NCBI GenBank assembly: GCA_041752275.1
Contig: JBGSHK010000015.1
Location: 64,641 to 128,640 of the forward strand
Reading direction: 5' to 3'
Origin: Minisyncoccia bacterium
GTDB lineage: Bacteria; Patescibacteriota; Minisyncoccia; Phycocordibacterales; CAIZLB01
DNA: 64,000 bases
The notes beneath the pieces were generated by a model. The model ran no database searches and was not told the origin of the DNA. It saw nothing but the letters and a program-made list of their open reading frames with translations. Of the stretch, positions 12,433 to 42,682 are shown one piece after another (position 1 is the stretch's first letter; each line of letters starts with the position of its first letter). The position numbers and the translations under genes were made by a program.

Positions 12433-12918
12433 TTATTTCTCTTCAGTTTCTGAACTAGTTTCTGGGACAACGTCGTCAACAACTTCTTCAGTTGCAACTG
12501 CTGCGTCTACCTCCTTTGAGAGAACTTCATCATCGTAGTCAGGTAAAATATCTTTAGCTACAAGTGTGTTTTCTCTTACTGTTTTCACAATAAGATATCT
12601 AAGCGTGTCATCAAGTTCTTTTACAAACTTTTCAAATGTTGCTAGCTTACTTGCTTCTAATTCAAACTTTACCCAGCCAAAAAATGCAGTTTCATACCAT
12701 TTCTTTTGAGCTTTGATGGTCTTTGGAATCTCATAAGCAAGATTAAACATGCGAGGAATTGATTCAGAGATGATTTCTCCTTCTAATTTCTCTATATTTG
12801 ACTTGATTTTTGAAAATTCTATTTGAACATCAGCCTCAGAAAGGGTTGGAAGGAGATGAATTCCTAATTCATATACCTTGAAGCCTTCTTTTGTGCTTTC
12901 TATATTAATTTCAGTCAT
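12433..12918 (-). CDS. rpsF: 30S ribosomal protein S6 (with acidic C-terminal extension)
   Basis: S6-like N-terminal domain (YELGIHLLP...RMFNLAYEI); position upstream of ssb-rpsR; acidic tail. Confidence 0.65.
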   Translation of the reverse strand: MTEINIESTKEGFKVYELGIHLLPTLSEADVQIEFSKIKSNIEKLEGEIISESIPRMFNLAYEIPKTIKAQKKWYETAFFGWVKFELEASKLATFEKFVKELDDTLRYLIVKTVRENTLVAKDILPDYDDEVLSKEVDAAVATEEVVDDVVPETSSETEEK

Positions 12919-12942
12919 AAAGAACACTTTATCATACAATGC

Positions 12943-13818
12943 TTATTTAAGCCAGTATTTCTTAGCATTGTTATAAAAGACATCTATAACCTCGTTTATA
13001 TCTATATCTTTGACCTCAGCTATCTTTTTATATATCTCTCGAACATGGTTTGGGTTGTTTTTTTGACCACGAAAAGACTTAGGTGACACATATGGACTAT
13101 CTGTTTCGGCAAACATGCGCTCTATAGGTACAAATCTTATCAAGTCCTCATACGACTCAACAAAGGTCACAACACCAGTAAAAGATATACTGAAACCCAA
13201 GTCAAGAAACTCTTTAGCTTCATCTATGGTTCCTGCAAAAAAATGTACATTACCTTTATATTCTTTCATAACACCTATAAAATTTTCTTTAAGAATTTCT
13301 AAAGTTTTACTGTAGGAATCCCGAACATGTAACATCAAAGGAAGGTCATATTTTATAGACATTTTTATCTGATTTATAAATATTTCTTTTTGAAAATCTT
13401 TGATTTTTTCCAAATCCGGCTCATTAATGTTATCAGCTGTAATTCTAAAATAATCTAAACCACACTCCCCTATACCACATATATCTTTGTTTACGACATG
13501 TTTTGATTTATCAAAACAGAAGTGCCCTTGTGGTGAACTTTCATCTTTTAACAAATCTTCTATGTCATATATACCTTCTGGATAAAGAGGATGCAGTCCA
13601 GCGGTGGACCACAAAAGTTCTGGATATTTTTGACTCAACTCAATACCATCCCTTGAACTTTTTTCATCAACTCCTACATTTATTCCTATAACATTATTTT
13701 TTTGCATTTCTGCCAAAATCTCAGTTCGATCTTCATCAAAATCAGCAAATTGTAAATGACAATGTAAATCTACAAATGGATTTTTAGTTGTTATTTCTTG
13801 GTTTTCAGAATTTGCCAT
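12943..13818 (-). CDS. tatD: TatD-family metal-dependent hydrolase (DNase)
   Basis: HCH metal-binding motif near the N-terminus (DLHCHLQF), internal His/Glu ligands and a C-terminal ETDSPY motif. Confidence 0.8.
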   Translation of the reverse strand: MANSENQEITTKNPFVDLHCHLQFADFDEDRTEILAEMQKNNVIGINVGVDEKSSRDGIELSQKYPELLWSTAGLHPLYPEGIYDIEDLLKDESSPQGHFCFDKSKHVVNKDICGIGECGLDYFRITADNINEPDLEKIKDFQKEIFINQIKMSIKYDLPLMLHVRDSYSKTLEILKENFIGVMKEYKGNVHFFAGTIDEAKEFLDLGFSISFTGVVTFVESYEDLIRFVPIERMFAETDSPYVSPKSFRGQKNNPNHVREIYKKIAEVKDIDINEVIDVFYNNAKKYWLK

Positions 13819-24318: not shown

Positions 24319-25065
24319 TTACTCTTGTTGACCTTTTTTCATATAACCTGTAAATGCTTGCATAACCTCAAGTGGTATAGCATATACAACAGTATTTGAA
24401 GCATCTGAAGACATGTCGTTTATAGACTGCAAAGTTCTTAAGTGAAGTGCCCCTGGTACAGCAGATAATGTTCTTGCAGCCTGAGCCATGTTTTCTGATG
24501 CTGCAACCTCTCCTTCTGAGGTTATAATCACGGCTCTTTTCTCTCTTTCTGCTTCAGCTTGTTTAGCAATAGTTCTTTCCATATTCTCAGGTAGTTTTAC
24601 ATCCTTAAGCTCTACAGAAGAAACCTTTAGTCCCCATGAAGCTGATACAGCTTCAACAAGCACCTCTATACGATCTGCTATTTGATCACGACTTGATAAA
24701 AGTTCATCAAGTGTTGCACCACCTACAACATTTCTCATACTTGTTTGAGCATATTGCATCATTGCATATCTAAAGTTCTCTATCTCTAAAATAGCTTTTT
24801 CTGCATCTACTACTTTATAGTAGATCACTGCGTTTACGTTCACTGGTACATTATCTTTTGTGATAGCGTTTTGATCAGGAACATCCACAGCTTTAGTTCT
24901 AAGATCAACTTTTTGATAAGATTGGATGATAGGAAAAACTATTCTCCATCCAGGATTCATTGTTTTATGAAATTTTCCGAACATGAATTTTAATCCTTTT
25001 TCGTATTGGTTAACTTGACGAATTGAGATTAAAAGTAAAATTATTATTGGTATGATTATTTGCAT
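24319..25065 (-). CDS. SPFH/band-7 (stomatin/prohibitin-like) membrane protein
   Basis: N-terminal TM followed by an SPFH domain pattern and a coiled-coil C-terminus (ERTIAKQAEAEREKRAVI). Confidence 0.75.
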   Translation of the reverse strand: MQIIIPIIILLLISIRQVNQYEKGLKFMFGKFHKTMNPGWRIVFPIIQSYQKVDLRTKAVDVPDQNAITKDNVPVNVNAVIYYKVVDAEKAILEIENFRYAMMQYAQTSMRNVVGGATLDELLSSRDQIADRIEVLVEAVSASWGLKVSSVELKDVKLPENMERTIAKQAEAEREKRAVIITSEGEVAASENMAQAARTLSAVPGALHLRTLQSINDMSSDASNTVVYAIPLEVMQAFTGYMKKGQQE

Positions 25066-29675: not shown

Positions 29676-30101
29676 TTACTTACTACCACTACTACCAAAA
29701 GCCCCCTCCCCTCGTGCTGAATCCGACAACTCATCACATTCAACAACTTCAGCATGCAATACCGGCATGATAAGTATCTGTATTATTTTATCTCCCGACT
29801 TAAATTCATAATCTTTGTCAGACAAATTCATCATACCAACATGTATCTCACCTCTGTATCCAGCATCTATGATCCCTCCATAACTTTTAAGCCCATGCTT
29901 ATGTGACAATCCACTTTTATCAAAAAGTATACCTACATAACCGTCAGGTATTTCTATAGCTATACCTATTGGTATCGATTTTCTTTCTCCTTGTTTAAAA
30001 ATCAAATCTTCTGGAATATACAAATCCAAACCTGCATCCCCTGCATAGGCATAACTTGGTATTTTTGCATTGGGATGAAGTTTTTTAAATTTTAATTGCA
30101 T
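29676..30101 (-). CDS. dut: dUTP diphosphatase (dUTPase)
   Basis: dUTPase motifs AGDAGLDLY and GIIDAGYRGEI; 141 aa. Confidence 0.8.
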   Translation of the reverse strand: MQLKFKKLHPNAKIPSYAYAGDAGLDLYIPEDLIFKQGERKSIPIGIAIEIPDGYVGILFDKSGLSHKHGLKSYGGIIDAGYRGEIHVGMMNLSDKDYEFKSGDKIIQILIMPVLHAEVVECDELSDSARGEGAFGSSGSK

Positions 30102-30112
30102 ATATTTATGTA

Positions 30113-30628
30113 TTAATATTTTGTAATATTTTTATCAAGTATTTCAAGTTTTACTTTTGTTTCTTTAAAAATTCTTTTACTTTGAGCTGATGCTTGATAA
30201 TCTTGTTTTGCAACAACTCGTATAATACCAGCGTTAATAATAAGTTTTGCACATGTATAACATGGTGTCATCGTACAGTACAAAGTTGCACCTTGAAGTG
30301 ACACGCCAACACGTGATGCTTGTATCAACGCATTTTGCTCTGCGTGTATAGTTCTTATGCAGTGCATAGTTTCAGTTCCATCGTCATGGGTTACTTTATG
30401 CATCTCATGTCCAACCTCATCACAATGTTTTGCACCCTGAGGCGAACCTACATAACCTGTAGTTAGTATACGTTTGTCTTTTGTTATGACACATCCTGAT
30501 CTACCTCTGTTGCAAGTTGCTCTATGCCCTATAGTTTCAACCAGCTCCATAAAATATTGGTCCCAGGATGGTCTAGTTTTTTGTTCTGGTTTTTTACCTG
30601 TTTTTACGGTTGCGGTTTTTTTATCCAT
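30113..30628 (-). CDS. dCMP deaminase (cytidine/deoxycytidylate deaminase family)
   Basis: Zinc-binding HAEQNA and PCYTCA motifs; 171 aa. Confidence 0.8.
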   Translation of the reverse strand: MDKKTATVKTGKKPEQKTRPSWDQYFMELVETIGHRATCNRGRSGCVITKDKRILTTGYVGSPQGAKHCDEVGHEMHKVTHDDGTETMHCIRTIHAEQNALIQASRVGVSLQGATLYCTMTPCYTCAKLIINAGIIRVVAKQDYQASAQSKRIFKETKVKLEILDKNITKY

Positions 30629-30736
30629 TAGATAAATTATAGCATTTTGACTTTTTTGAGGTATGCTTGACTTTTGTATACAAATTATGTTATAATATAT
30701 AAGCTAAAGTAAGCAAACTACCGATACTACCGAACC

Positions 30737-31312
30737 ATGAAAAACATTATTACATTCGTTTCTTTCCTCTTTTTCACCATTACCGGTGTGAAGGCATCGG
30801 CTACTTTGACCTTCATTGGAGAAGGATGGTTTACTCAAAACCAAAGAAACTTTATTTCAACTGAAAACGGATATCAGTACTCTGCGACTGATTGGTACTC
30901 CCAAAACACACCAAGGAATACAGCGGTTATTGAATTCAACATCAACAACTATCAAAATTTCTGGAACGTTCAATTTGGTGCACCGACAGGACAAGTTTTA
31001 ACACTTGGAACCTATTATAATGCTACAAAATATACTCCCGGCCATACTCAACCATTCATGAATCTTTATGGCGGAGGTAGAGCATGGTCAGAAATAAATG
31101 GATGGTTTAACATCCTGGAAATTGAATGGGGTACTAATAATGTTGTTACCAAACTCGCAGTCGATTTTGGAATATTTCAAAACCCCATCTCTTGGGCCGA
31201 AGGATCAGTTCGTATGAACTCCAATATACCGATCCCATCCATCCCAGAACCCGGAGCTCCAATCATGTCAGCCATCAGCCTAACTCTCCTCTCATGGAGA
31301 CGTGGCCGTTAA
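30737..31312 (+). CDS. secreted protein with PEP-CTERM-like C-terminal sorting signal
   Basis: Signal peptide (MKNIITFVSFLFFTITGVKASA); the C-terminus ...IPSIPEPGAPIMSAISLTLLSWRRGR is a PEP motif plus a hydrophobic helix plus a basic tail; GC (~42%) is higher than the surroundings. Confidence 0.5.
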   Translation: MKNIITFVSFLFFTITGVKASATLTFIGEGWFTQNQRNFISTENGYQYSATDWYSQNTPRNTAVIEFNINNYQNFWNVQFGAPTGQVLTLGTYYNATKYTPGHTQPFMNLYGGGRAWSEINGWFNILEIEWGTNNVVTKLAVDFGIFQNPISWAEGSVRMNSNIPIPSIPEPGAPIMSAISLTLLSWRRGR

Positions 31313-31376
31313 CAAACAACAATTCTCTCGTACATACCCCCGTGGTGTGTACGAGAATTTTTTTATTTATATATTT

Positions 31377-32153
31377 TTAATACAAAATAACAAGTATCAA
31401 AATAGCCAACACTATCCTATACCAACCAAAAAAACTCAAAGATATGCGTGTTAAATATTTTCTCAAAATAAACAAAGTTATAAATCCAGAAATAAAAGCT
31501 AAAACAAAACCAAGTATCAACTCATTATAATTATAAAGTGTCTGAAAAATATCCCTAGACTTATATGCATCATATAAAACAGCTGCACCTAAAGTCGGCA
31601 ATGCTAATATAAATGTATACTCAATAATGACTGACTTTTTAATACCCCTAAAAACACCAGCTATGATAGTAGCCCCTGAACGAGATACACCTGGAATAAT
31701 AGCTACTGCCTGTGCAAGACCTACAATAAAAGCATCTTTCATACTTAGTGTATCTTTTTGTTTCTGTATATTTACTTCTTTCTTTAAAAATACTTTTTCT
31801 ATATAGATAAATATAACGCCACCTAGTATAAGCATAGAAGCCATCAAAAGAATATTGCCTTCTAAAAGTTGTTTAAACATTTTATAAAAAATAAAACCAA
31901 CAACCGCTGAGGGAATAAAACTAACAACTATGTTTGTAAAAAGTTTTTTATCTGTAAATATTTTTTTAGCGAAAAGTGATGCTCCGGCAAGTAAAGCACC
32001 GAGCTGTATAAATAGTAAATAAAACTTTACATAAGAATCAGTCAAATCAATAGAGCTAAGTTTTGAAAAAATAATGAGATGGGCAGTGGACGATATGGGT
32101 AGAAACTCTGTGAGTCCTTCTAGTATAGATATGAGTAGTAGATTTGTATTCAT
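31377..32153 (-). CDS. uppP: undecaprenyl-diphosphatase (UppP/BacA)
   Basis: EGLTEFLPISSTAHL motif and a polytopic membrane profile; start trimmed to the internal MNTNLLLIS. Confidence 0.8.
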   Translation of the reverse strand: MNTNLLLISILEGLTEFLPISSTAHLIIFSKLSSIDLTDSYVKFYLLFIQLGALLAGASLFAKKIFTDKKLFTNIVVSFIPSAVVGFIFYKMFKQLLEGNILLMASMLILGGVIFIYIEKVFLKKEVNIQKQKDTLSMKDAFIVGLAQAVAIIPGVSRSGATIIAGVFRGIKKSVIIEYTFILALPTLGAAVLYDAYKSRDIFQTLYNYNELILGFVLAFISGFITLFILRKYLTRISLSFFGWYRIVLAILILVILY

Positions 32154-32223
32154 AAAATATATGATATCACAAAAACAAAAAACACCACTTTCATGATGTC
32201 TTTTATTTTCCAACTCTCTTAAC

Positions 32224-32649
32224 TTAGTCTATAACCTCAACCCCAAGTGATGCACATGTTCCTTCGATCATCTTTATAGCTCCGGCAAGGTCGAATGCAT
32301 TCATATCAACCATCTTTCTTTCTGCAATCTCTTTAACTTGAGCTTTTGTGATCTTACCTGCCTTCTTTGAGTTTGGTGTACCTGAACCTTTTTCTAGACC
32401 GATAGCCTTTTTAACCATCTCAGCTGCTGGAGGTGTTTTCATGATAAAGTCAAAACTTCTATCATCATATACACTTATAACAACAGGAATAGTGTTTCCT
32501 GCCATAGCTTGTGTTGCATCGTTAAATCTCTTTACGAAATCTCCGATGTTAACACCAGCAGGTCCAAGAGCTGTACCAATAGGTGGTGCAGGTGTTGCTT
32601 TTGCTGCTGCAATCTGTAGTTTTATTATTTTTGTTACTTTTTTTGCCAT
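32224..32649 (-). CDS. rplK: 50S ribosomal protein L11
   Basis: [35 protein letters not shown] matches L11; 141 aa. Confidence 0.9.
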
Positions 32650-32696
32650 ATTTTTTAGTTTATTTTTGCGAATCTATTTGTACGATTGATAATAGC

Positions 32697-33239
32697 TTAT
32701 TTTTTCTTTACTTGCAAGAAGTCTAGTTCTACCGGTATTTCTCTGTCAAACATAGAAACAAGTACTATAAGCTTACCTTTTTCTTGATCTATCTTAGATA
32801 CCTTGCCATCTGAGTCTTTAAAAGGACCATCAACTATAGAAACATATTCATCCAAACGAACATCTAGATTGTGTATAAGGTTATCTCCTTTCATGTTTGT
32901 AAATATAGCCGCCAACTCAGTATCTGTTACAGGAACCGGGATGTTGCCTGAACCAACAAAACCTGTAACACGTGGTGTGTTACGAACGTTAAACCATGTT
33001 TCGTCATTAACAATCATTTCAACCAAAACATAACCGGGATAAATCTTTTCATCTTCCTCTATTCTTTTACCTGACTTGATTTTTATAACTTTTTTTGTTG
33101 GTATAAGTACATTAAATATTTTATCTTCAAGCCCTAAAGACTCTATACGCTGCTTAAGATTTCTTACAACAGCATTTTCATAACCAGAATATGTTTGTAT
33201 TGCATACCAATTTCTTTCTTTTTCTATTTGTTTTGCCAT
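32697..33239 (-). CDS. nusG: transcription termination/antitermination factor NusG
   Basis: NGN domain (NWYAIQTYSGYENAV) and a C-terminal KOW motif (GPFKDSDGKVSKIDQEKGKLIVLVSMF). Confidence 0.85.
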   Translation of the reverse strand: MAKQIEKERNWYAIQTYSGYENAVVRNLKQRIESLGLEDKIFNVLIPTKKVIKIKSGKRIEEDEKIYPGYVLVEMIVNDETWFNVRNTPRVTGFVGSGNIPVPVTDTELAAIFTNMKGDNLIHNLDVRLDEYVSIVDGPFKDSDGKVSKIDQEKGKLIVLVSMFDREIPVELDFLQVKKK

Positions 33240-33264
33240 ATATTTTAATTAAATTTTAAAATTA

Positions 33265-33441
33265 TTAAAGAATTATTGATAATAATCTGGCAAAAAATGC
33301 ATCTAATGCTCCTAAATATATAGCTAGTAAAAAAGAAAGTGTAGTTACTACAACTGTGTAGCCTATAACTTGTTTTTTTGTTGGCCATTTTATTTTTTTT
33401 GTTTCAAAACTTACTTCTTTTATATAAGATATGATGGACAT
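33265..33441 (-). CDS. secE: preprotein translocase subunit SecE
   Basis: 58-aa ORF below the ORF-track cutoff (MSIISYIKEVSFETKKIKWPTKKQVIGYTVVVTTLSFLLAIYLGALDAFFARLLSIIL); KWPT motif plus a single TM; lies immediately upstream of nusG in the conserved order. Confidence 0.7.
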   Translation of the reverse strand: MSIISYIKEVSFETKKIKWPTKKQVIGYTVVVTTLSFLLAIYLGALDAFFARLLSIIL

Positions 33442-33535
33442 GTTTTTATTATATTATTTATTTATTATTTATCAAACTATTTTTCAATTTTAAAACGCTC
33501 TTTGGGAGCGCTTTAAAGATAAATATTATATTAGA

Positions 33536-34432
33536 CTATTTGATTGAATATGTCAATGTAACATTTGACACAATCTTCTCCTGACCTGGAGTTAACTCAG
33601 GTGCCCGAGGTGCAGACTCTGCTTTAACACTTCTTGTATTCATAGTGTCATAACCGGCACCGCTATACATAGGATATATAGATGAAGCATTATCTGAGAA
33701 ACTAGCTAACTCATCTAAACCAACACCTAAATCTTTAGCTAACTTCTTTGCATCCTCTTTAGCATTTTTTATAGCTTGCTCTCTTATGTTTTTTTGAACA
33801 GACTCTATATCATATACTGTAAAATTAAATCCATCGGCTTTTATATTTTGTGCAGATAATTCACTTATAATCTTTGTTCTTTGATCATTATTTGCATTTT
33901 TTTCTATATCACGAACTTTTACTGACATTGTTTGAGTTAATATTTGCCCTACTATTTTAGAGTTAGAAACTTCACATGGTGCTATTGTTTTTTGAATACC
34001 ACCCTCCATCATTGCGGGATACGCACAAGGTTGTGATACGTTTTCATATTTATCACTTACATAATAACTTTCTAGTTTTATATTTTCTTTCTCTATGCCG
34101 TTAGCAACAAGTGTTGCTATAGCTTTTTCTGCTTTAGCCTTAGCAAGAGATGTTACAGTAGATATATCTTTACCTTCCTCCATAATAGTTATGTTAAAAG
34201 TTAAAGTATCCGGTATAACATACTCCTCTGCTTTTCCGTTTACGCTTATATAGTTTATGTTGTTAGTATTTTCAAAAGAAACAGCTTGTTTATATGTTAA
34301 TACTGTTTTTGCTATAAGAAACAATGCAATAAAGACCAAGATCAATGTTGCAAGATTTTTTCTTAAATTATTTGATTGTACAAATTCTATTATGTTATTT
34401 TGATCTATTATATTATTTTGTGTATTCTTCAT
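33536..34432 (-). CDS. SIMPL/DUF541-like secreted protein
   Basis: N-terminal TM or signal; the central region resembles the SIMPL domain (GKAEEYVIPDTLTFNITIMEEGKDIS...KAKAEKAIATLVANGIEKENIKLESYYV). Confidence 0.35.
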   Translation of the reverse strand: MKNTQNNIIDQNNIIEFVQSNNLRKNLATLILVFIALFLIAKTVLTYKQAVSFENTNNINYISVNGKAEEYVIPDTLTFNITIMEEGKDISTVTSLAKAKAEKAIATLVANGIEKENIKLESYYVSDKYENVSQPCAYPAMMEGGIQKTIAPCEVSNSKIVGQILTQTMSVKVRDIEKNANNDQRTKIISELSAQNIKADGFNFTVYDIESVQKNIREQAIKNAKEDAKKLAKDLGVGLDELASFSDNASSIYPMYSGAGYDTMNTRSVKAESAPRAPELTPGQEKIVSNVTLTYSIK

Positions 34433-34496
34433 GATTTTATTATATCACCGATTCTAGTAAGTTTTCAATCAAACCAAACACGGCGGATTTTATTAA

Positions 34497-35063
34497 TTAT
34501 TTAAAAAATTTAAAATCGACGTATTTAGTTATTCTATAATATATTTTAACTGATAAAAAAGCAGAAAAGGCACCTAACAATATGCCGAAAAATATATCTT
34601 TATATGTATGGACTTGTAACACCAATCTTGTAAAACTAACCAGTAATGCTATAGATACAAACAATGTAGAATGTAGATAATTTAAAAACCAGTGATTGTG
34701 ATCTTTAAAATATTTGAATAATATAAAGATAACCGAAAAACAAAACGCAAAAATCATAGCAGTATGTCCTGAAGGAAAACTATATCCCGTTTCCCAAACA
34801 AGCATGTTTTCTGGTCTAAGTATCCTAAATATTGATTTTGAGACTGCGGATAAAATACCTCCCAGAAGTACAGCTGATGACATTATCACAACCCCTTTAA
34901 TATTGTTTGGGCAGTTAACGCTTAATATTTCTCTGTACTTAATGCCTTTTATATTTAAATATAGAAATGAAACTGCAAGCATGAATACACAAAACATCAC
35001 TAAAACTTCAGGAGAAAATGTGTTCGTAATATATATTGATAATTTTATGAGATAGTCTGGCAT
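34497..35063 (-). CDS. PAP2-family (type 2 phosphatidic acid phosphatase-like) membrane phosphatase
   Basis: PAP2 motifs KxxxxxxRP (KSIFRILRPEN), PSGH (SFPSGHTA) and SRxxxxxHxxxD (TRLVLQVHTYKD). Confidence 0.7.
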   Translation of the reverse strand: MPDYLIKLSIYITNTFSPEVLVMFCVFMLAVSFLYLNIKGIKYREILSVNCPNNIKGVVIMSSAVLLGGILSAVSKSIFRILRPENMLVWETGYSFPSGHTAMIFAFCFSVIFILFKYFKDHNHWFLNYLHSTLFVSIALLVSFTRLVLQVHTYKDIFFGILLGAFSAFLSVKIYYRITKYVDFKFFK

Positions 35064-35067
35064 GATT

Positions 35068-35649
35068 TTATTCAGTCATTTCTTTTTCGTTTTTAATAAT
35101 ATTTCCACTATGGCTTATAACTCCTTGCTTGATCAAAAAATCTGAAAGTTTGTTTGCCAAGTTTTTATCTATAAGAGGAATAAGATTTGTTTTTTCATCT
35201 TCAAAATTATCAAGTCTTGATGTTGTTATATCAAGTTTAGATAAACCAAATAATCTATAGTGATAAGGTCTATCTATATCTACGTTTTGTATATGTCTAT
35301 ATGGTATAACTTTTTCTTTTACCATAAATATTCCTCTTCTTATATGAAAAGAATGTTCCCCTAATAAAAACTTATGTTGTATATGCATTTCAAAAGCTGA
35401 GACAAAAATAAGAATAATAATACTCAAAAGAAGTGAAATAAACCAAAGGTTTAACATACCTACAGTAACAATGGTATTGAAACCGGACCACCATGTGTAG
35501 AAACTATCTGTGTTTATAAGATATATAATAGAAGAAAACAAAATAATCCATAAAAAGGGTTTAAGTCCATTTTTTAACATTAAAAAAAAGAAAACCTGTT
35601 TACCAAAAGTATACTTTTTATTTAAAACTAATTCTTCTTGTTTTTTCAT
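35068..35649 (-). CDS. membrane protein with bacterial PH (bPH_2/DUF304, YdbS-like) domain
   Basis: Two TMs followed by a bPH_2-like segment (HIRRGIFMVKEKVIPYRHIQNVDIDRPYHYRLFGLSKLDITTS); the first 16 codons of the tracked ORF are a read-through of the adjacent tRNA and were trimmed. Confidence 0.5.
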   Translation of the reverse strand: MKKQEELVLNKKYTFGKQVFFFLMLKNGLKPFLWIILFSSIIYLINTDSFYTWWSGFNTIVTVGMLNLWFISLLLSIIILIFVSAFEMHIQHKFLLGEHSFHIRRGIFMVKEKVIPYRHIQNVDIDRPYHYRLFGLSKLDITTSRLDNFEDEKTNLIPLIDKNLANKLSDFLIKQGVISHSGNIIKNEKEMTE

Positions 35650-35650
35650 T

Positions 35651-35733
35651 TGCGCTGGGGGAGATTTGAACTCCCACACCCTTGCGGGCGCTACCACTAA
35701 AAGGTAGTAAGTCTACCTTTTCATTACCTGCGC
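35651..35733 (-). tRNA. type-II (long variable arm) Leu-like tRNA with anticodon UUA (would read UAA/UAG); possible suppressor or pseudo-tRNA
   Basis: Minus strand: acceptor GCGCAGG/CCAGCGC (one A-A mismatch), discriminator A73, Leu-like D-loop AAAAGGTAGA, anticodon stem CTACC/GGTAG with loop TTTTAGT (U33, anticodon 34-36 = TTA), long variable arm CGCCC-GCAA-GGGTG, canonical T-arm GGGAG-TTCAAAT-CTCCC. Confidence 0.45.
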
Positions 35734-35800
35734 ATAGTATAAGGTTACTATAGTTGTATTTGTATATCAAATAGGAATATGATATATTATTTTTACATAA

Positions 35801-35873
35801 GCGCGATTAGCTCAGTTGGTAGAGCAACTCATTTACACTGAGAAGGTCGGGGGTTCAAGTCCCTCATCGCGCA
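35801..35873 (+). tRNA. tRNA-Val (anticodon UAC)
   Basis: Acceptor GCGCGAT/ATCGCGC, D-arm GCTC-AGTTGGTA-GAGC, anticodon loop TTTACAC, T-arm GGGGG-TTCAAGT-CCCTC, discriminator A. Confidence 0.8.
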
Positions 35874-35880
35874 CAAACAG

Positions 35881-35909
35881 AAAAAAGCCCACTAGGGCTT
35901 TTTTATTTT
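35881..35909 (+). terminator. rho-independent terminator after tRNA-Val (a second hairpin at 35918-35942)
   Basis: aaaaaagccc-acta-gggctttttt, followed by gcgcc-cgac-ggcgc-tttt. Confidence 0.55.
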
Positions 35910-35944
35910 GAAGCGATAAAAAGCGCCCGACGGCGCTTTTGTGT

Positions 35945-36030
35945 GGGACTTGAAAAGCTTTCCCTTATTTTTGAGAATCTTGATTCGAAAAAATGGGAAA
36001 GGTATACTGACCGTGTAACGGTCAAGTCCC
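35945..36030 (+). repeat. structured repeat element, copy A (T-arm-mimicking closing helix specific for tRNA-Val)
   Basis: gggacttga...tcaagtccc closing helix; the 3' strand equals the T-loop/T-stem of tRNA-Val 75 nt upstream. Conserved core CGAAAAGC-stem-TTTTGAG-...-CGAAAAA-stem-GGTATACTGA-hairpin(TGTAA loop). Confidence 0.6.
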
Positions 36031-36099
36031 CAATAAAGTACAAAAAAACAGAGCTCCTGAGAGCTCCATTTTTCTAAGTTAAAATATTTTCTCTAATAT

Positions 36100-36780
36100 C
36101 TATTGCAAACGTACACATTTTGCACGAGCAGCATAATCTATAGCATCTTTACCTGTGGCTTGTATTACATAATCTAAATCTGTGCCAGCATTTTTTAAAA
36201 AAGTATATACATTTGCAGGATCATCATAGGCAACTGTACTGGACCAATATGTAGCTGTACCATCAGTAAAATTAAAACCTAAAGTATTTCCAGGGTTACC
36301 TGAAATATATCCACTTAACAATTCTGATATAGTTGGAAGTCTCCAATCTGTATCACCACCTTCAGATAGACCATTACAAAAAGTTGTAGCTTCAAACCAA
36401 TCAACTACTTCATCTACATGTTGCCCTGACGCCCATTCCAAACTTGTTGTTGTTGATAAAGTTCCATTAACTCCAAATATACTTGTTCCTGTAGCAATGT
36501 TTGTCGATATAATATCAGGATTTTCAGCACTTAATAAATTGTATATTTCAGTGAGTGTTCTAAATGAAGCTACGGCAGATCCTGGTGTTGTAAAAGGTGA
36601 AGAAGTTGCATTTGGTGTAGCTGAAAAATTTACTAACTTATTATAAATATCATTTAATGAATATTGAGTATCGTCACCAATGGTTCCTGATGGTGTAAGT
36701 GATCCAATAGCATTTGCAATTTGTGATCCAATAGATACTGTTAGTACTAGTATTAAGATTGTGATTAAAGTTTTTTTCAT
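36100..36780 (-). CDS. secreted protein with C-terminal DUF1566 (Lcl C-terminal-like) domain
   Basis: Signal peptide; the C-terminal region contains a DWRLPTISELLSGY-type motif characteristic of DUF1566. Confidence 0.45.
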   Translation of the reverse strand: MKKTLITILILVLTVSIGSQIANAIGSLTPSGTIGDDTQYSLNDIYNKLVNFSATPNATSSPFTTPGSAVASFRTLTEIYNLLSAENPDIISTNIATGTSIFGVNGTLSTTTSLEWASGQHVDEVVDWFEATTFCNGLSEGGDTDWRLPTISELLSGYISGNPGNTLGFNFTDGTATYWSSTVAYDDPANVYTFLKNAGTDLDYVIQATGKDAIDYAARAKCVRLQ

Positions 36781-36797
36781 TTTTTATTTTTTAAGTA

Positions 36798-37571
36798 TTA
36801 ATTTTTAAGTAATAATTTTTCAACAAAACCTTTGGTAATTGGTCCATACATACCAACGGAAGGTTTTATGTTATTTTCAATCTGAAATTTTATTAAAGCT
36901 TTTTTTGTTAAAGATCCAAATTTATTAGTTTCAAAACCAGGTGATCCTGGACCGGTTTTTGATAATATAAAACCTTGTGAATTTAGAAACTGTTGTAACC
37001 ATTTAACATCTTCACCTTTCATATTTAAACATAAAGTTCTTTTAATGTTTGGTATTTTTATTTTACTAGATTTTAAATGAATATCTAAAGTTGTTGAACT
37101 ACTTCTTAAAAGTACATCTGGTATAACTGTAGGAGTAGACCCTCCTGACCAACTTGATCCAGCGGGTAAAATAGGGGGTGCGGGAGGTGGTGGTGTAGTT
37201 GATGGCCAAGTTGTTGTTACATTTGTACCATTTTCAAATGATAACCATCCAGTGTTGTCATTGTAGGCATAACCTTTAAAAGAAAAACTTTGTATTGAAA
37301 CATTTGAAAAATCAAACCAGCCCACTGATTCACTCCAGGCATAACCCCCTAATACACCATTTGTATTTGTAACGCCATCTAAAACTAACCATCCGGTGTT
37401 GTCGTTGTAGGCATAACCTGTAACCGCAGTGTCTGCTACAGTGACATTTGAAAAATCAAACCATCCTACTGATTCACTCCATGCATAACCTGTAGTGTTA
37501 GCAGCGAAAACTGGAGCTGTTATTAACATAAATAAAATAAGAAAACACTTCTTCATAATTTGATTATACAT
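36798..37571 (-). CDS. secreted cell-wall-associated protein: two tandem ~45-aa repeats, Pro-rich linker, C-terminal peptidoglycan-binding domain
   Basis: Signal peptide; a duplicated GYAWSESVGWFDFSNV...GYAYNDNTGWL unit; TTPPPPAPPILP linker; C-terminal PG_binding_1-like segment (GEDVKWLQQFLNSQGF...LIKFQIENNIKPSVGMYGPIT). Confidence 0.5.
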   Translation of the reverse strand: MYNQIMKKCFLILFMLITAPVFAANTTGYAWSESVGWFDFSNVTVADTAVTGYAYNDNTGWLVLDGVTNTNGVLGGYAWSESVGWFDFSNVSIQSFSFKGYAYNDNTGWLSFENGTNVTTTWPSTTPPPPAPPILPAGSSWSGGSTPTVIPDVLLRSSSTTLDIHLKSSKIKIPNIKRTLCLNMKGEDVKWLQQFLNSQGFILSKTGPGSPGFETNKFGSLTKKALIKFQIENNIKPSVGMYGPITKGFVEKLLLKN

Positions 37572-37632
37572 TATATAAAAAATAAAATATAGTTAAAAGA
37601 CTCAAGTAATGATCTAAAACATGAATTTATAC

Positions 37633-38628
37633 TTATTTTAATAGTATTTCGATCCACTCTCCTGAATATTTTTTTAAAAGGTCATATATTTTTACTTTAT
37701 CAGTCTCATTTAACACACTCACCTTAGAACCAACATTTGCAAAAGGAATAATCTTATAATCCACCTTATCTTTATAAACCTCAGCTGAAACCCCTATGCC
37801 ATGCGTCGTGTTAAAAGAAAAATATTGATCAAAAATAAAATTTCCTAAAGAATAAAATATATATTTATCTTTATAAACCTCAGCTGATTGTATAACATGT
37901 GGATGATGACCTATAACAACATCAACTCCTGCATCTATCCAGGCATGAGCTAACTTAACCTGTTTTTTGTTTGGTGTTAGAGCATACTCTGTTCCCCAGT
38001 GTGGGTATATAACAAGATAGTCTACATTGGGTCTCATTTCTTTTATTTTATCTGCTATAAGTTCATCATTTGCATATCCGAACTCATGCCAACCTATAAT
38101 ACCTACACATATACCATTTACACATGTAGATGTTGCCGTGTATGCTGGATTGTTTTTTGGACTTCCGAAATACATCACATCATTTTCTGATAAAATATTT
38201 CTTGTTTGATTTAAACCAGCCTGACCAAAGTTGTCCGTGTGATTATTTGCCAGAGAAACTATATCTATACCAACATTTTTAAGAGCAGGTGCAACTTTCT
38301 GATCAAAAGTAAACTGGAATCCTGATATAGCTTTTCCGGAAGGTAAAACTAGTTTAGATTTGAACGAAGTTATAGGACCTTCTAGGTTAGCGATAGTTAA
38401 ATCATGATTTTGTATAGTTGTAGTGGCTGTGCCAAAAATATTTTCATAACCAATACCATCACCTTTAACTCTTACACCTCTGTCAAACATCATGTCACCT
38501 AGAAACAATACAGAAACTGATTCTTCTTTTTGTATCAAGTTTACAGGAACACCTTTTTCTATATTTGCATCAGAAAAGCCTAAGAATGAAAAGATGGATA
38601 ATATACTTAAAAACATTTGATTCAACAT
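37633..38628 (-). CDS. CapA/PgsA-family metallophosphoesterase (poly-gamma-glutamate capsule synthesis protein-like)
   Basis: Signal peptide; PGA_cap-like motifs (LFLGDMMFDRG, ANNHTDNFG, GHHPHVIQ, GNFIFDQ). Confidence 0.7.
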   Translation of the reverse strand: MLNQMFLSILSIFSFLGFSDANIEKGVPVNLIQKEESVSVLFLGDMMFDRGVRVKGDGIGYENIFGTATTTIQNHDLTIANLEGPITSFKSKLVLPSGKAISGFQFTFDQKVAPALKNVGIDIVSLANNHTDNFGQAGLNQTRNILSENDVMYFGSPKNNPAYTATSTCVNGICVGIIGWHEFGYANDELIADKIKEMRPNVDYLVIYPHWGTEYALTPNKKQVKLAHAWIDAGVDVVIGHHPHVIQSAEVYKDKYIFYSLGNFIFDQYFSFNTTHGIGVSAEVYKDKVDYKIIPFANVGSKVSVLNETDKVKIYDLLKKYSGEWIEILLK

Positions 38629-38651
38629 ATCTTAAGTATAGACTTATCGAG

Positions 38652-39383
38652 CTATTTAACAACCACAGCCTGATCTGTGACACCTGGAACTTTGTTTATG
38701 TTTTCCATAAGTTTTTGTGTTGTCCAATACTCTGCATATTTACCTTTTTGAGAATCATTAAGATAAAATCCTTGTGGATTTTCTATACCGCCCTTAAAAC
38801 CAATAATCAAACGAACATGCTCACCTCTAAAAGCTTTAACATCTACACCCTCTTTTGTTTTCCATGTGTATGGAATTTCTGTATAAGAACTGTATCCCCA
38901 AACAATAACAGGGTTTCCGTTGTCTATTGATTTTGCCAAGAAACTAGGTGTTATGGCTGTACTTGTAGCATACTCGACATCTCGTCCATAACTTTTTATA
39001 GCATTTACAACAGGCATTCCATACACTCCATAACCGCCATTGGGTTTTCCTGCAACATCTACATAACCAACAAATTGTTTTTGAGGATCATCCCATATAT
39101 TGTTGATCCAATCTTTATATGTCGGATTATAGCCAAATCTGCCAAGTAATTGAACATCATTTGTTAAATTAATACCCTTAAAGGCTAAAGCCATACGAAG
39201 TGTAGAGGCTTCACAGCTATTAACATATTGTTGTTTATAGGCAGGAACTTTTAGTTTTATGTCTTTGTAAATTTTTGTATTCACAGTATCTGCAAAAACA
39301 CTTGTTATTCCAGTTATAGAAATAAGTAATAATAAGAATAGTAAGACTTTACTTTTATATAACATATTAGAATATTGTAACAT
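38652..39383 (-). CDS. secreted papain-like C39-like peptidase domain protein
   Basis: Signal peptide; a putative catalytic Cys in VNSCEASTLRMALAFKG and downstream His/Asp candidates, resembling the C39_2/YvpB-like family. Confidence 0.45.
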   Translation of the reverse strand: MLQYSNMLYKSKVLLFLLLLISITGITSVFADTVNTKIYKDIKLKVPAYKQQYVNSCEASTLRMALAFKGINLTNDVQLLGRFGYNPTYKDWINNIWDDPQKQFVGYVDVAGKPNGGYGVYGMPVVNAIKSYGRDVEYATSTAITPSFLAKSIDNGNPVIVWGYSSYTEIPYTWKTKEGVDVKAFRGEHVRLIIGFKGGIENPQGFYLNDSQKGKYAEYWTTQKLMENINKVPGVTDQAVVVK

Positions 39384-39404
39384 TTTTATTTAAAAGTTAA
39401 AAAA

Positions 39405-39746
39405 TTATCTTATTCTTTCTTCAATTTTATCAACTCGCAAAACTAGATTTTGAAACTCATATGGGTTTATCATGTTTTTATCTATGATATCAAACTTTTT
39501 ATCGACTTTGTCAAAACGACTTTCTATTTGTTGAAATCTTTTATCTACTGTATCAAAACGCTTACTTACATCTTTTTCAAGAACATCGGTTCTTTTGGTA
39601 ATACGATTAAAACCATCAACCATATCAGATCTTAACTCATTTATCTGACTCTGCATATTTGTAAAACCATTATTAACCATAATAGCTAGTTCACATATGG
39701 TCATGTCTTCATCTATTCTTTTTTCTTTGTTAATTTTTTTATTCAT
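39405..39746 (-). CDS. hypothetical coiled-coil protein
   Basis: 113-aa highly charged ORF with repeated KRFDxV/DKxF segments; no recognisable motif. Confidence 0.3.
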   Translation of the reverse strand: MNKKINKEKRIDEDMTICELAIMVNNGFTNMQSQINELRSDMVDGFNRITKRTDVLEKDVSKRFDTVDKRFQQIESRFDKVDKKFDIIDKNMINPYEFQNLVLRVDKIEERIR

Positions 39747-40110
39747 TGTATGTAATTATATTCTCGAAAAATATAAAATCAAATTTCTTTAGAACTGTGA
39801 TATAGGTTTAAACTAAGTCAATGAAATTCGGAATTATGATTATAATTTACAATAAAAAATATGTTTTAAGAGGATAAAATTTGTAACTTAAAAACAGAGC
39901 TTTTCTTTATCTCACTCAAGTTTTAGTTCAGAAAATATGAATGAAGTAGAAAAAGGCTTGACGGAAGACCTTTAAGTCTGAGTCAGAAGAAAATCCCCAG
40001 CTCCTAGAGATGGGGATTATTCTGACCTTTTTCGTATGAATGAATATTTTTGTGCGACTTATATTCCTTATGAGCGTTAGCGAATTAGGAATATAGAAGT
40101 GCCCTTGTGG

Positions 40111-40182
40111 TGCTCTCGGTTGGAATCGAACCAACATTAACGGCTTAGAAGTCCGCAGTTCTATCCATTGAACTACAAGAGC
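40111..40182 (-). tRNA. tRNA-Arg (anticodon UCU)
   Basis: Minus strand: acceptor GCTCTTG/CGAGAGC, D-arm GTTC-AATGGATA-GAAC, anticodon loop containing CTTCTAA (anticodon TCT), T-arm GTTGG-TTCGATT-CCAAC, discriminator A. Confidence 0.75.
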
Positions 40183-40200
40183 AATGGTTAATTTATAACA

Positions 40201-40584
40201 TTACTCGGTCGAAGTTGCAACTGTGGTAGATGCAGTAGTTGTAGCTATTAAAGGCGTCGGTGTTGTCGATTTTATCAGTCTATTATACTCCACCTCCCTA
40301 GTCTCAAAAATTGATATTTTTTTATTTAAATTATTTATATTATTTAAAAAACTCTTATTATTAATTGTATTTCCTAATTCATTTGTAGAGACAGAATTTT
40401 CAACTGAGTCTCTTATTTCTTTTTCTATTGTTGATATTTCTCTCTTAATATATAAAAAACTATAAAAACCATAGGCAAAAACAAAAATCATAAACAAAAA
40501 AAATGTAAACAAAAAGTAATTCCAATCCCTCAATGAATTTATTGTTGTTTTATTTTTAAATTTTGTTTTTAATTTTAATTTCAT
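40201..40584 (-). CDS. hypothetical single-TM protein (possible pilus assembly component downstream of the PilMNO-like genes)
   Basis: 127 aa; an N-terminal TM, then coiled-coil and a Thr/Ala-rich tail; translationally coupled to the upstream gene (4-nt overlap). Confidence 0.3.
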   Translation of the reverse strand: MKLKLKTKFKNKTTINSLRDWNYFLFTFFLFMIFVFAYGFYSFLYIKREISTIEKEIRDSVENSVSTNELGNTINNKSFLNNINNLNKKISIFETREVEYNRLIKSTTPTPLIATTTASTTVATSTE

Positions 40585-41150
40585 CTTTTTTGATATATTA
40601 TCAATGTTATATTAGCATTATTTGCTATATTTGAGTCTGAATATTTAATATCTATTTTTTCTATATACGAGATTAAAGGTAAATTATTTAATATATTTAT
40701 AAAGTTATTTATATCTTTTTCTGATCCTGAAATATTTATATTTATAACTAAATCTATAGCATTGTATTTTAACAGCTCTGTATTTTCTCTAGAAATAACA
40801 GAAACGATAGCTGATTCACCTGTTTTTGATAAACCTGTTTTTTCTGCATATTCTTCAAGTTTATTTATAAGTCCTAAAACCTCTTTTCTGTCACTAGATA
40901 AAATATATTTATTTATAACAGATAATTCTGTTGAATCTTTTGATATAATTTTATCATATTTTTGATAAATTTTTTCTTCATTTTCAAGCTGAGATAATTT
41001 TTTGTAGTCCTCTATGACACTATTTTTATACTTTCTTATTTTATCATTTAAATAATATATTAAAAATATGAAGAATATAAGAATTAATATCAAAAATATT
41101 AAATTTACCATCTTATTATTTATATTTAATTTTAGATTTATCTTATTCAT
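40581..41150 (-). CDS. PilO-like type IV pilus assembly protein
   Basis: 189 aa with an N-terminal TM plus coiled-coil and a C-terminal PilO-like domain; overlapping gene junctions with its neighbours. Confidence 0.35.
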   Translation of the reverse strand: MNKINLKLNINNKMVNLIFLILILIFFIFLIYYLNDKIRKYKNSVIEDYKKLSQLENEEKIYQKYDKIISKDSTELSVINKYILSSDRKEVLGLINKLEEYAEKTGLSKTGESAIVSVISRENTELLKYNAIDLVININISGSEKDINNFINILNNLPLISYIEKIDIKYSDSNIANNANITLIIYQKR

Positions 41151-41667
41151 AATTTAATGTTTGTGAAAAAGTAAAATTTTTATTTTGATTAAAAACAGAA
41201 TAAGGTAAATCAGCACCTTTGTACTTACTTGTATTTAAAGTATCTACTAAAATACTTGCTGTGTTTTTATTATTAACATCAGCAACAACTGTAACTTTTT
41301 TATCTAGAGAGTTTACATTTATACTTATAATTTTAACGTTTGGAACACTTCTATATATATTTTTTATTTCTTGAAATATTTCTATGGTATTTTTTTTAAC
41401 ATCTATATTAAAAATTGAAATATTATTTATACTAGAAACGTCAACTTCATCAACCTTGGTTCTATATTGATTTATAGTATTTTCTATTGGGATTATTTTA
41501 TCTGTAACTATTTTTTTATCCATGTGCATAATTAAATAAGCTGGAAAAAGAGAAATTGATAATATAATTGATAAAATTATAAAACCAATAGAAAACACTA
41601 TAAATAAATTATTATAATATTCATCAAGTATTTTTTCTTTTTGTTTTTTATTTATTAAAAAAAGCAT
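41143..41667 (-). CDS. PilN-like type IV pilus assembly protein
   Basis: 174 aa with a single N-terminal TM (LFIVFSIGFIILSIILSISLF) followed by a periplasmic domain; lies immediately downstream of the PilM-like gene. Confidence 0.4.
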   Translation of the reverse strand: MLFLINKKQKEKILDEYYNNLFIVFSIGFIILSIILSISLFPAYLIMHMDKKIVTDKIIPIENTINQYRTKVDEVDVSSINNISIFNIDVKKNTIEIFQEIKNIYRSVPNVKIISINVNSLDKKVTVVADVNNKNTASILVDTLNTSKYKGADLPYSVFNQNKNFTFSQTLNYE

Positions 41668-41671
41668 ATTT

Positions 41672-42682
41672 TTATTTTAATCTAGGTAATGCAAGTCCTA
41701 TAGACGTTGCATATTGATAAGAATCTGTTTTATTAATAAGTGGAATTTCCTCATTTAAATCAAGTACATTAACCCATACATTTGGTTTTTCTATTGGCAT
41801 AGCCAACTTGTTTGTCATCATATTTATAAATTCTGAATCTATTATATTTGAGTGTGTAGAATTTATTATTAAAGATTTTATATTATTAAATTTATATGAG
41901 TTATTTTTTTCTATATATGAAAACCAAAAAAATATTATTTTATATATGTCTTTTATAACTTCTTCTAATATCTCAATTCTTTCAAGGTTTAAATCTTGGT
42001 CAAAAATAGTCTTATTGATTGTTGATGTGTATAAAACTATGCCAAAAGAAACTATGGAAACTGAAATGTTTTTTCTTTCAATAGAAACGATACAGTAGGA
42101 ATTTTTATCATCTTTATGTATTAATGATTTACTCAGAGCTTGGTTTTGTATTAAAATAGATACTATTTTTAAATTTGCTTTCTGAAAAGTTTCTATGTAA
42201 TCATCTATAATTTTTTTAGAAACAACTGTAATAGAGATAAGTTTTTTTTTATTTTCTAAATTTAAAATTTCGACAAAATCAAATATTATTTCATCAACTT
42301 TAAATGGAACATTTTCTTCTATTTTAAATTCTATTTGACTATTTATAGCAGAAATATCACCATCATCGACTTCCTGAGTATATATATAAGCTAATTCTTC
42401 AGGTAAAGAAACTTCAACATATTTATATTTATATTCTTTTTTGATTTTTTTTAAAATTTCTAAAATTTCTAAAATTTCTAAATTTGTTGATAATAAATCT
42501 TCTTTACTTCTTATGTTTTTTATTTCTTCTACTCCATATGTATCTAAAATAAGTTTATTATTTATTTTTTTAAAATTTATATGTCTAATATGAGCTGAAC
42601 ATACATCAATACCTGCGTGATCAAATCTGATCATTTTTGGTACAGGTATATGTTTTTTTATTTTTTCTAAAAAAATATTCAT
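41672..42682 (-). CDS. PilM-like (actin-like ATPase fold) type IV pilus assembly protein
   Basis: 336 aa, with length and N-terminal pattern (RFDHAGIDVCSAHIRHI) consistent with PilM/FtsA-like proteins; heads a four-gene overlapping cluster. Confidence 0.4.
   Translation of the reverse strand: MNIFLEKIKKHIPVPKMIRFDHAGIDVCSAHIRHINFKKINNKLILDTYGVEEIKNIRSKEDLLSTNLEILEILEILKKIKKEYKYKYVEVSLPEELAYIYTQEVDDGDISAINSQIEFKIEENVPFKVDEIIFDFVEILNLENKKKLISITVVSKKIIDDYIETFQKANLKIVSILIQNQALSKSLIHKDDKNSYCIVSIERKNISVSIVSFGIVLYTSTINKTIFDQDLNLERIEILEEVIKDIYKIIFFWFSYIEKNNSYKFNNIKSLIINSTHSNIIDSEFINMMTNKLAMPIEKPNVWVNVLDLNEEIPLINKTDSYQYATSIGLALPRLK

Follow-up and report, generated by a model that had tools for sequence, protein, structure and literature searches.

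A remodeled tRNA-Leu(GAG) with a UUA anticodon in a Patescibacteria genome, possibly a decoding-dead relic kept for its excision

We analyzed a 64,000-nucleotide (nt) stretch of a Minisyncoccia (Patescibacteria) genome (assembly GCA_041752275.1, contig JBGSHK010000015.1, positions 64,641 to 128,640; here called the window) and followed up an 83-nt element on its minus strand that has the form of a transfer RNA (tRNA) with the anticodon UUA, complementary to the stop codon UAA. The element is almost certainly the orthologue of a tRNA-Leu(GAG) gene and neither a paralogue nor a derivative of tRNA-Leu(UAA), and it is very probably not an efficient ochre suppressor. We put the probability at about 0.5 that it is a decoding-dead relic of tRNA-Leu(GAG) kept as an excision signal. 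The parts of the element are listed below by their positions in the window.

35651..35733, minus strand: tRNA-derived element, 83 nt, G1 to A73, anticodon UUA (ARAGORN, Rfam, alignment to syntenic tRNA-Leu(GAG) genes)
35698..35700, minus strand: anticodon U34 U35 A36 (U34 at 35700, A36 at 35698; sequence and alignment; GAG in the orthologues, UUC in the sister locus L008)
35709..35725, minus strand: eroded D-arm with derived A9, A10 and U11 (35725-35723) and U24 and U25 (35710-35709; alignment)
35651..35695, minus strand: conserved 3' module, which runs from the 3' strand of the anticodon stem through the variable arm, the T arm and the 3' acceptor strand to A73

A tRNA-Leu(GAG) orthologue with a replaced anticodon and D-arm

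A sequence-only reading of the window had proposed a Leu-type class II tRNA gene at this site and had suggested ARAGORN as a check. ARAGORN called a tRNA-Stop with the anticodon tta at 35650..35734 of the minus strand, and a local Rfam scan aligned the element to RF00005 from end to end at 40.3 bits (E=3.3e-7; gathering score 29). A gathering scan of the whole window had left the element unlisted because of its speed filters. The loop UUUUAGU with U33, the T arm, the long variable arm, A73, the A-A acceptor mismatch and the weak D-stem that this reading had described are all present in the sequence. The 7-nt loop sits on an anticodon stem of 5 base pairs (bp; CUACC/GGUAG), the variable arm is CGCCCGCAAGGGUGU, and the T arm is GGGAG-UUCAAAU-CUCCC, unchanged from the orthologues. 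As in class II tRNA-Leu, there is a long variable arm, the discriminator A73 (at 35651), a 7-bp acceptor stem, here with an A5.A68 mismatch (A68 at 35656), and a 5-bp T stem, which together give a 7/5 architecture; CCA is not encoded. A Leu anticodon (NAG or YAA) is lacking, and so is the conserved core of G9 and G10 with a paired 3-bp D-stem, of which A10-U25, U11.U24 and G12-C23 remain in the window. An independent data set (SRR28170465) yielded a contig, L001, that matches the window at 100% identity over 2491 nt, this gene included, which excludes an assembly error.

We chose contigs of relatives through graded homologues of bPH_2, the gene that starts right after the element; a protein-seeded metagenome scan added one locus only (L132). 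The shared gene order runs tRNA-Arg(UCU), peptidase, PGA_cap and tRNA-Val(UAC) on the opposite strand, then the tRNA slot, then bPH_2, PAP2, SIMPL, SecE, NusG and L11. The slot holds tRNA-Leu(GAG) in seven relatives, whose bPH_2 identity to the window is 85% (L002), 80% (L133), 79% (L134), 75% (L011), 74% (L003), 66% (L132) and 53% (L006). The element aligns to these genes without gaps and differs at ten positions, and the common slot in seven relatives together with the identity outside the ten positions is the basis for orthology. The sequence-only reading had compared the element with tRNA-Leu(UAA) and had offered a decaying paralog as one of two readings. Decay was the better of the two, but the gene is a positional orthologue and not a paralogue, and the relevant ancestor is tRNA-Leu(GAG), with the loop UUGAGGU.

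The closest relative, L008 (bPH_2 95% identical; from another sample), shares the derived D-arm of the window and has the loop UUUUCGU with the anticodon UUC; ARAGORN labels this copy 'tRNA-Glu'. All three anticodon bases differ from the ancestral GAG in both the window and L008. The alignment places the replacement of the anticodon and of G9, G10, C11, G24 and C25 in the common ancestor of these two genomes, and a further D-arm change, C16>A (35718), is specific to the window. The 3' module matches the canonical orthologues exactly, except for C68>A at 35656, which creates A5.A68. Pair 5-68 is non-Watson-Crick across the clade, even in apparently functional tRNA-Leu(GAG): it is A.C in five relatives, C.A in L132 and A.A in the window (35729 and 35656) and is paired (A-U) only in the distant L006.

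An anticodon-arm scan that left the anticodon free (one genome per species, at least 120 matches, pooled with loci already in the set) gave GAG in 127 of 129 instances across phyla among the matches listed, the exceptions being the window (identical to L001) and L008. We rejected widespread anticodon hypervariability of this tRNA body, given that the matches listed from species-representative genomes all had GAG, and the metagenome and viral contigs scanned contained no variants with a base other than G at position 34. The derived 3' strand of the D-stem, GACUU, was found only in the window and L008. Among 123 canonical tRNA-Leu(GAG) genes, G9 is present in 123 and G10 in 120, and the derived A9, A10 and U24 occur in 0, 1 and 1, respectively; L008 has additionally lost A14, which is A in 121 of the 123. 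The tRNA core is built from the U8-A14 pair and the G9 and G10 triples, and identity for the leucyl-tRNA synthetase (LeuRS) of Escherichia coli depends on A73 plus the tertiary core. The Rfam/Infernal scores are 49.0-51.3 bits for canonical orthologues, 40.3 for the window and 36.0 for L008.

The remodeled RNA is also predicted to misfold, with the anticodon buried in the following hairpin.

35699..35721, minus strand: predicted alternative 9-bp hairpin between the D-loop AAAAGGUAG and CUACCUUUU (minimum-energy and centroid structures of RNAfold)

According to RNAfold, this hairpin pairs A13-G21 with C27-U35 in the window, replaces both the D and the anticodon arms, and buries U34 and U35 along with the elbow nucleotides G18/G19, leaving A36 unpaired. 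Fold predictions ignore tertiary contacts and modifications, and thermodynamic folding of tRNAs is unreliable; with that reserve, the alternative fold has an ensemble probability of 0.997-0.998 in the window and L008 versus 0.03-0.04 in the canonical orthologues, whose minimum-energy structure is the cloverleaf. A structure with a proper anticodon stem is 3.8-4.8 kcal/mol worse, and one with the D-stem enforced as well is ~10 kcal/mol worse. The hairpin is favored by each of U34, U35 and the window-specific C16A, and L008 A14G works against it. Because of this opposing change, we take the hairpin as predicted misfolding and not as proof of a selected structure.

Constraint on the 3' half and a proposed role in mRNA processing

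The positions changed in both the window and L008 are 9, 10, 11, 24, 25, 34, 35 and 36, which fall into three unbroken runs (probability under random placement, P=2.5e-5). All eight of these D-stem and anticodon positions changed versus 3 of 75 elsewhere (Fisher P=4e-9), and just 2 of 46 G/C sites outside them changed despite an AT-biased genome. Between the window and L008, a comparison that covers only the time since the remodeling, 13.9% of the four-fold degenerate sites in three shared genes differ (n=209), versus 4 of 83 positions in the whole element (P=0.007) and 1 of 45 at positions 39-83 (P=0.0098). At positions 8-38 there are 3 differences in 31 sites, close to the 4.3 expected under neutrality. 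From these counts, the 3' half (positions 39-83) looks constrained while the D-arm and the anticodon drift. The decay that the sequence-only reading had suggested therefore holds for the D-arm and anticodon, but a plain pseudogene is too simple a description because the 3' half is still constrained.

The element stands directly before the bPH_2 gene in the following arrangement.

35647..35650, minus strand: junction, with a single spacer base A (35650) between A73 and the bPH_2 ATG (35649-35647; sequence)
35068..35649, minus strand: bPH_2 (YdbS-like) membrane-protein gene (Pfam PF03703, E=6.1e-11; homologues)
34497..35063, minus strand: PAP2 phosphatase gene (Pfam PF01569), 4 nt past the bPH_2 stop codon
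35734..35800, strand not assigned: 67-nt spacer separating the divergent tRNA-Val from the element (alignment, junctions)
35801..35874, plus strand: tRNA-Val(UAC), divergent neighbor and synteny anchor (ARAGORN, Rfam)
35881..35904, strand not assigned: symmetric terminator-like hairpin closing tRNA-Val and the upstream minus-strand operon

The bPH_2 start codon abuts the element, the upstream 20 nt contain no Shine-Dalgarno motif, and no alternative start codon is compatible with the N-terminal conservation among homologues. The A73-N-ATG junction is found in all eight tRNA-bearing lineages that span 66-100% bPH_2 identity; in L006, a 22-nt spacer follows the tRNA, with TATAAT 7 nt before the ATG. 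Shine-Dalgarno-like motifs (GGAG, GAGG or AGGA in -20..-4) precede 1 of 62 window genes, and many window genes have an extended -10 box, TGnTATAAT, that ends 6-7 nt before the start codon (for example, the starts at 25065(-), 34432(-), 30628(-), 24208(-), 43017(-), 50297(+) and 54942(+)). The near lack of Shine-Dalgarno motifs and the position of these boxes near the starts suggest that leaderless messenger RNAs (mRNAs) are the rule in this genome.

Two lineages have no tRNA in the slot, L004/L005 (bPH_2 67% identical) and L009/L010 (79%). The deletion junctions differ, reading TATTATGGGCATGAAA in L009/L010 and TACTATGGCTATAGTA in L004/L005 (L009 1461-1535, L010 1-100, L004 5935-6011), so the losses are independent clean deletions. 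The L009 junction may reflect a slipped deletion between the direct repeats 5' GCGCA and 3' GCGCA of the tRNA. Both deletions place the bPH_2 ATG straight behind a conserved block of the spacer, 11 nt after a conserved TATAGT. This highly conserved block (…TTGATATACAAATACAACTATAGTAACCTTATACTAT) is kept even where the tRNA is gone, and for this reason the 67-nt spacer is presumably the promoter region. With the terminator-like hairpin at 35881-35904 separating it from the operon upstream, the element needs a promoter of its own. PAP2 is probably cotranscribed with bPH_2.

We propose that the element is transcribed from the conserved 67-nt spacer and would head the bPH_2-PAP2 transcript. An unexcised, structured leader of 83 nt would hide the bPH_2 AUG, and ribonuclease P (RNase P) and RNase Z would expose it by cutting out the tRNA-shaped module, leaving an mRNA with the 5' end N-AUG or AUG. 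Both enzymes recognize, and need only, the acceptor/T-arm minihelix. Excision would still be required in a genome that has essentially no Shine-Dalgarno sites and seems to depend on start codons at the 5' terminus, and this need would keep positions 39-83 under selection while the D-arm and anticodon drift after the loss of decoding. As CCA is not encoded, 3' maturation would be endonucleolytic, and RNase Z is known to cleave at the discriminator or one nucleotide beyond (PMC1920247). We advance the retention of the element as an RNase P/RNase Z processing signal as a tentative proposal.

Several points weigh against this proposal and against the broader idea of a relic kept for its excision. 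Minihelix recognition does not explain why the anticodon stem and variable arm, too, have stayed the same. Two lineages lost the tRNA by clean deletion and without visible harm, so the slot is dispensable; as their loci show, a genome can do without the element once promoter and ATG are fused. A simple sigma-70 scan of the 67-nt spacer detected no consensus promoter. Without the D-loop/T-loop elbow, which the predicted fold does away with, RNase P could cut less efficiently, and the prediction has its own weaknesses: the canonical orthologue is itself predicted with a register-shifted anticodon stem, and L008 A14G slightly weakens the alternative hairpin. The constraint statistics come from one sequence pair, with four-fold sites an imperfect neutral yardstick at 31% guanine plus cytosine (GC), and the tRNA-Leu inventory covers the 64-kb window of the genome. 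CUY codons account for 30% of Leu codons, and if the relic is dispensable for them, the genome would be expected to carry a tRNA-Leu(UAG) or another GAG copy. Every functional step of the processing model is an inference. In the literature searched, we found no bacterial precedent for tRNA-generated leaderless mRNAs, and the idea is our own.

Alternative explanations

The rival that survives best is a plain tRNA pseudogene, in which a redundant tRNA-Leu(GAG) was inactivated and awaits deletion, so that its conservation reflects too little elapsed time. We consider this unlikely, if well worth weighing. It would fit the outright loss of the gene in two related lineages, the eroded core nucleotides with their lowered Rfam scores, an anticodon that differs between two close genomes, and D-stem changes that all run from G/C to A/T, matching AT-biased mutation. 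Such a pseudogene should change more evenly than 8 of 8 against 3 of 75 positions, with more than 2 of 46 G/C sites altered elsewhere, and it should not evolve more slowly than four-fold sites, notably at positions 39-83. An unprocessed 83-nt leader would, moreover, bury the bPH_2 AUG in a genome without Shine-Dalgarno sites.

A weak or regulated ochre suppressor, in which LeuRS ignores the anticodon and the Leu-charged RNA occasionally reads UAA (and UAG), we judge to be improbable. The parts for it are present, with a UAA-complementary anticodon in a 7-nt loop that has U33 and is closed by a 5-bp stem, an intact A73, variable arm and T loop, and a constrained 3' half. According to PMC11028032 and PMC11415595, the anticodon plays no part in recognition by the Leu, Ser and Ala synthetases, and natural tRNAs with a UUA anticodon are known among the allo-tRNAs (PMC5389517). 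The anticodon is not conserved, however: L008 has UUC on the same body and the other relatives have GAG, which speaks against suppression as a conserved role. Since LeuRS disregards the anticodon, a charged L008 RNA would place Leu at GAA/GAG, codons with a frequency of 64 per 1000 in the window. That UUA is tolerated in one strain and UUC in the other makes it unlikely that the function is decoding.

The window itself gave no genomic signs of read-through. The sequence-only reading had named TAA as the usual terminator, and TAA indeed ends 51 (77%) of the 66 long open reading frames (ORFs), with TAG ending 11 and TGA 4. The TAA share is 48% in relatives with a normal tRNA, TGA is not enriched in the window, and back-up stops track AT content rather than the state of the tRNA. 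We therefore rejected an adaptation to suppression through back-up stops or a shift to TGA, as its signal did not go beyond an effect of AT richness. Programmed read-through was also rejected, since the sole same-frame ORF pair split by one TAA (12433-13818, minus strand) encodes a complete TatD and ribosomal protein S6, and so was a reassignment of UAA: TAA is the main stop, 90% of the window is coding under code 11, and genes are not interrupted by TAA. As an aside, TAG is rarer as a stop in the window (11/66) than in related loci with the canonical tRNA (27/61), in a small sample in which GC content may explain the difference.

For the tRNA body, the picture is mixed. Its acceptor, T and variable arms are intact, but the D-arm is eroded, with the invariant G9 and G10 lost and a U.U mismatch in the D-stem, the score lies 9-11 bits under that of the orthologues, and a fallible minimum-energy prediction is not a cloverleaf and buries the anticodon. 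The GAG parent passed on G37 U38, a loop context that is unfavorable, under the extended-anticodon rules, when the last anticodon base is A36. No other instances occurred among the genome matches listed or in the metagenome and viral scans. The literature searched contained no report of a UAA-reading tRNA in Patescibacteria, and the lone suppressor met there was the UGA-Gly tRNA of code 25 lineages and their phage. The sequence-only reading had left room for an active or regulated suppressor, and nothing we gathered came out in favor of one.

A re-purposed, non-decoding RNA, in which the remodeled D/anticodon hairpin is itself selected, appears quite improbable; it could act, for example, as a regulatory pseudo-tRNA, as an amino-acid donor kept off the ribosome, or as a stabilizing 5' structure. 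The tight clustering of the eight shared substitutions (P=2.5e-5) suits such an RNA, as do the strengthening of the hairpin by each of U34, U35 and C16A and a probability of >0.99 for this fold in both derived sequences. The envelope-related neighbors PAP2, PG-binding (peptidoglycan-binding) and PGA_cap might hint at a role, and a pseudo-tRNA with a nontranslational role is documented (PMC3399842). On the other side, L008 A14G weakens the hairpin, the D-stem changes are unnecessary for it, and no partner or target is evident. Two sequences preclude a covariation test, and the pattern can be a by-product of U-rich drift opposite an A-rich D-loop.

Very improbable is a still-chargeable Leu tRNA with a freely evolving anticodon, that is, a low-activity, strain-variable tRNA for mistranslation or read-through in a bacterium of the candidate phyla radiation (CPR). 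Such a tRNA would insert Leu at UAA stops in the strain with UUA and at Glu codons in the strain with UUC, and the weakened D-arm and competing hairpin would be a built-in attenuator that keeps its activity tolerable. A sequencing or assembly artefact or a mis-called anticodon is practically negligible, as the independent contig is identical, L008 from another sample shares the derived D-arm with U34 U35, and ARAGORN and Infernal agree on the fold and loop.

Genomic context and comparison with known systems

The window is a stretch of bacterial chromosome of about 31% GC that is read under the standard code, and the bPH_2 homologues derive from metagenome-assembled genomes of Patescibacteria/Parcubacteria. 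The neighbors of the element are housekeeping genes (bPH_2/YdbS, PAP2, SIMPL, NusG and others), with the envelope-related PAP2, PG-binding and PGA_cap genes also near. We rejected a phage origin, as a megablast of 30000-42000 against phage genomes was empty and the NusG, SecE and L11 context is that of a bacterial chromosome. An integration site or a link to repeats was likewise rejected: repeat searches found neither repeated tRNA fragments nor relevant repeats, and the 'tRNA-targeting repeats' to which the sequence-only reading had tied the element did not turn up near it.

Other observations concern the surroundings. Two strong terminator-like hairpins lie at 35881-35904 and 36041-36076; the symmetric first one, AAAAAAGCCCTAGTGGGCTTTTTT, could serve as a terminator both for tRNA-Val(+) and for the minus-strand operon that converges on it. 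Between PAP2 and SIMPL, diacylglycerol-kinase and FolD genes are present in L002 (4398-7035), L003 (6613-9243) and L011 (953-3674), and both are absent from the window (33536-35063) and L008. The ORF at 36798-37571(-) encodes a secreted-looking product with a C-terminal peptidoglycan-binding domain, and its internal 72/144-nt DNA repeats at 37221-37490 encode a repeated GYAWSESVGWFDFSN-type motif. A 69-amino-acid ORF at 39928-40137(-), which overlaps the 3' part of tRNA-Arg(UCU) (40108-40182(-)) by ~30 nt, is probably spurious. The most AT-rich stretch of the window is 40000-42000, with 22.8% GC.

Classical E. coli ochre suppressors derive from Tyr, Lys or Gln tRNAs through the mutation of one anticodon base. 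The element shares with them the UAA-complementary UUA, a standard-code host and TAA as a common stop. They have an intact body with one base changed, whereas the element has three changed bases, a lost core and a sister with UUC. Allo-tRNAs have 8/4 or 9/3 acceptor/T stems and mostly Ser or Ala identity and often lie beside toxin-antitoxin genes (PMC5389517). Like the element, they are natural, bacterial and class II-like, with an anticodon that mismatches the charging identity and is UUA in some (PMC5389517). The element differs in its Leu ancestry and its housekeeping operon, and its 7/5 architecture rules out membership in this group.

Closer in fate is the pseudo-tRNA 'tRNA-Other' of Bacillus cereus, which lies beside a genomic island and has effects on cell-wall and antibiotic phenotypes (PMC3399842). 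Both are chromosomal tRNA-like genes retained without a function in translation, although for our element neither an island nor such a phenotype is evident. Saccharomycopsis yeasts keep an ancestral tRNA-Leu(CAG) that is unused in translation (PMC11342251), again a redundant Leu tRNA gene that persists outside translation; that case is eukaryotic and tied to codon reassignment, and its anticodon is unchanged.

The nearest likeness is to the t-elements of plant mitochondria, degenerate tRNA-like signals at mRNA ends in which the T arm is preserved (PMC1920247). As in these, the T arm of our element is unchanged, the D and anticodon regions are degenerate, the cloverleaf is noncanonical, and the module would abut an mRNA end, to judge from A73 lying 1 nt before the bPH_2 ATG in eight lineages; RNase P and RNase Z are the enzymes there and are those proposed here. 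The element differs in lying in a free-living-type Patescibacteria chromosome, in being a recent and traceable derivative of tRNA-Leu(GAG), and in a 3' end that would create a leaderless AUG. With the mitochondrial tRNA-punctuation model, the element would share a link between tRNA excision and mRNA ends.

The lesson for annotation is solid: a 'tRNA-Sup(TTA)' in a Patescibacteria genome is not evidence of suppression or recoding, and here it is a remodeled tRNA-Leu(GAG). Lineages separated by very little evolution show three fates of a redundant tRNA at the head of an operon, left intact, cleanly deleted or hollowed out, and so allow a direct test of how tRNA processing and mRNA maturation are linked in CPR bacteria. 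The idea of a processing signal is attractive and, if correct, would give bacteria a counterpart of organellar tRNA punctuation and t-elements: a nondecoding tRNA gene kept since its excision makes the 5'-terminal AUG of a leaderless mRNA, in a lineage seemingly without Shine-Dalgarno initiation.

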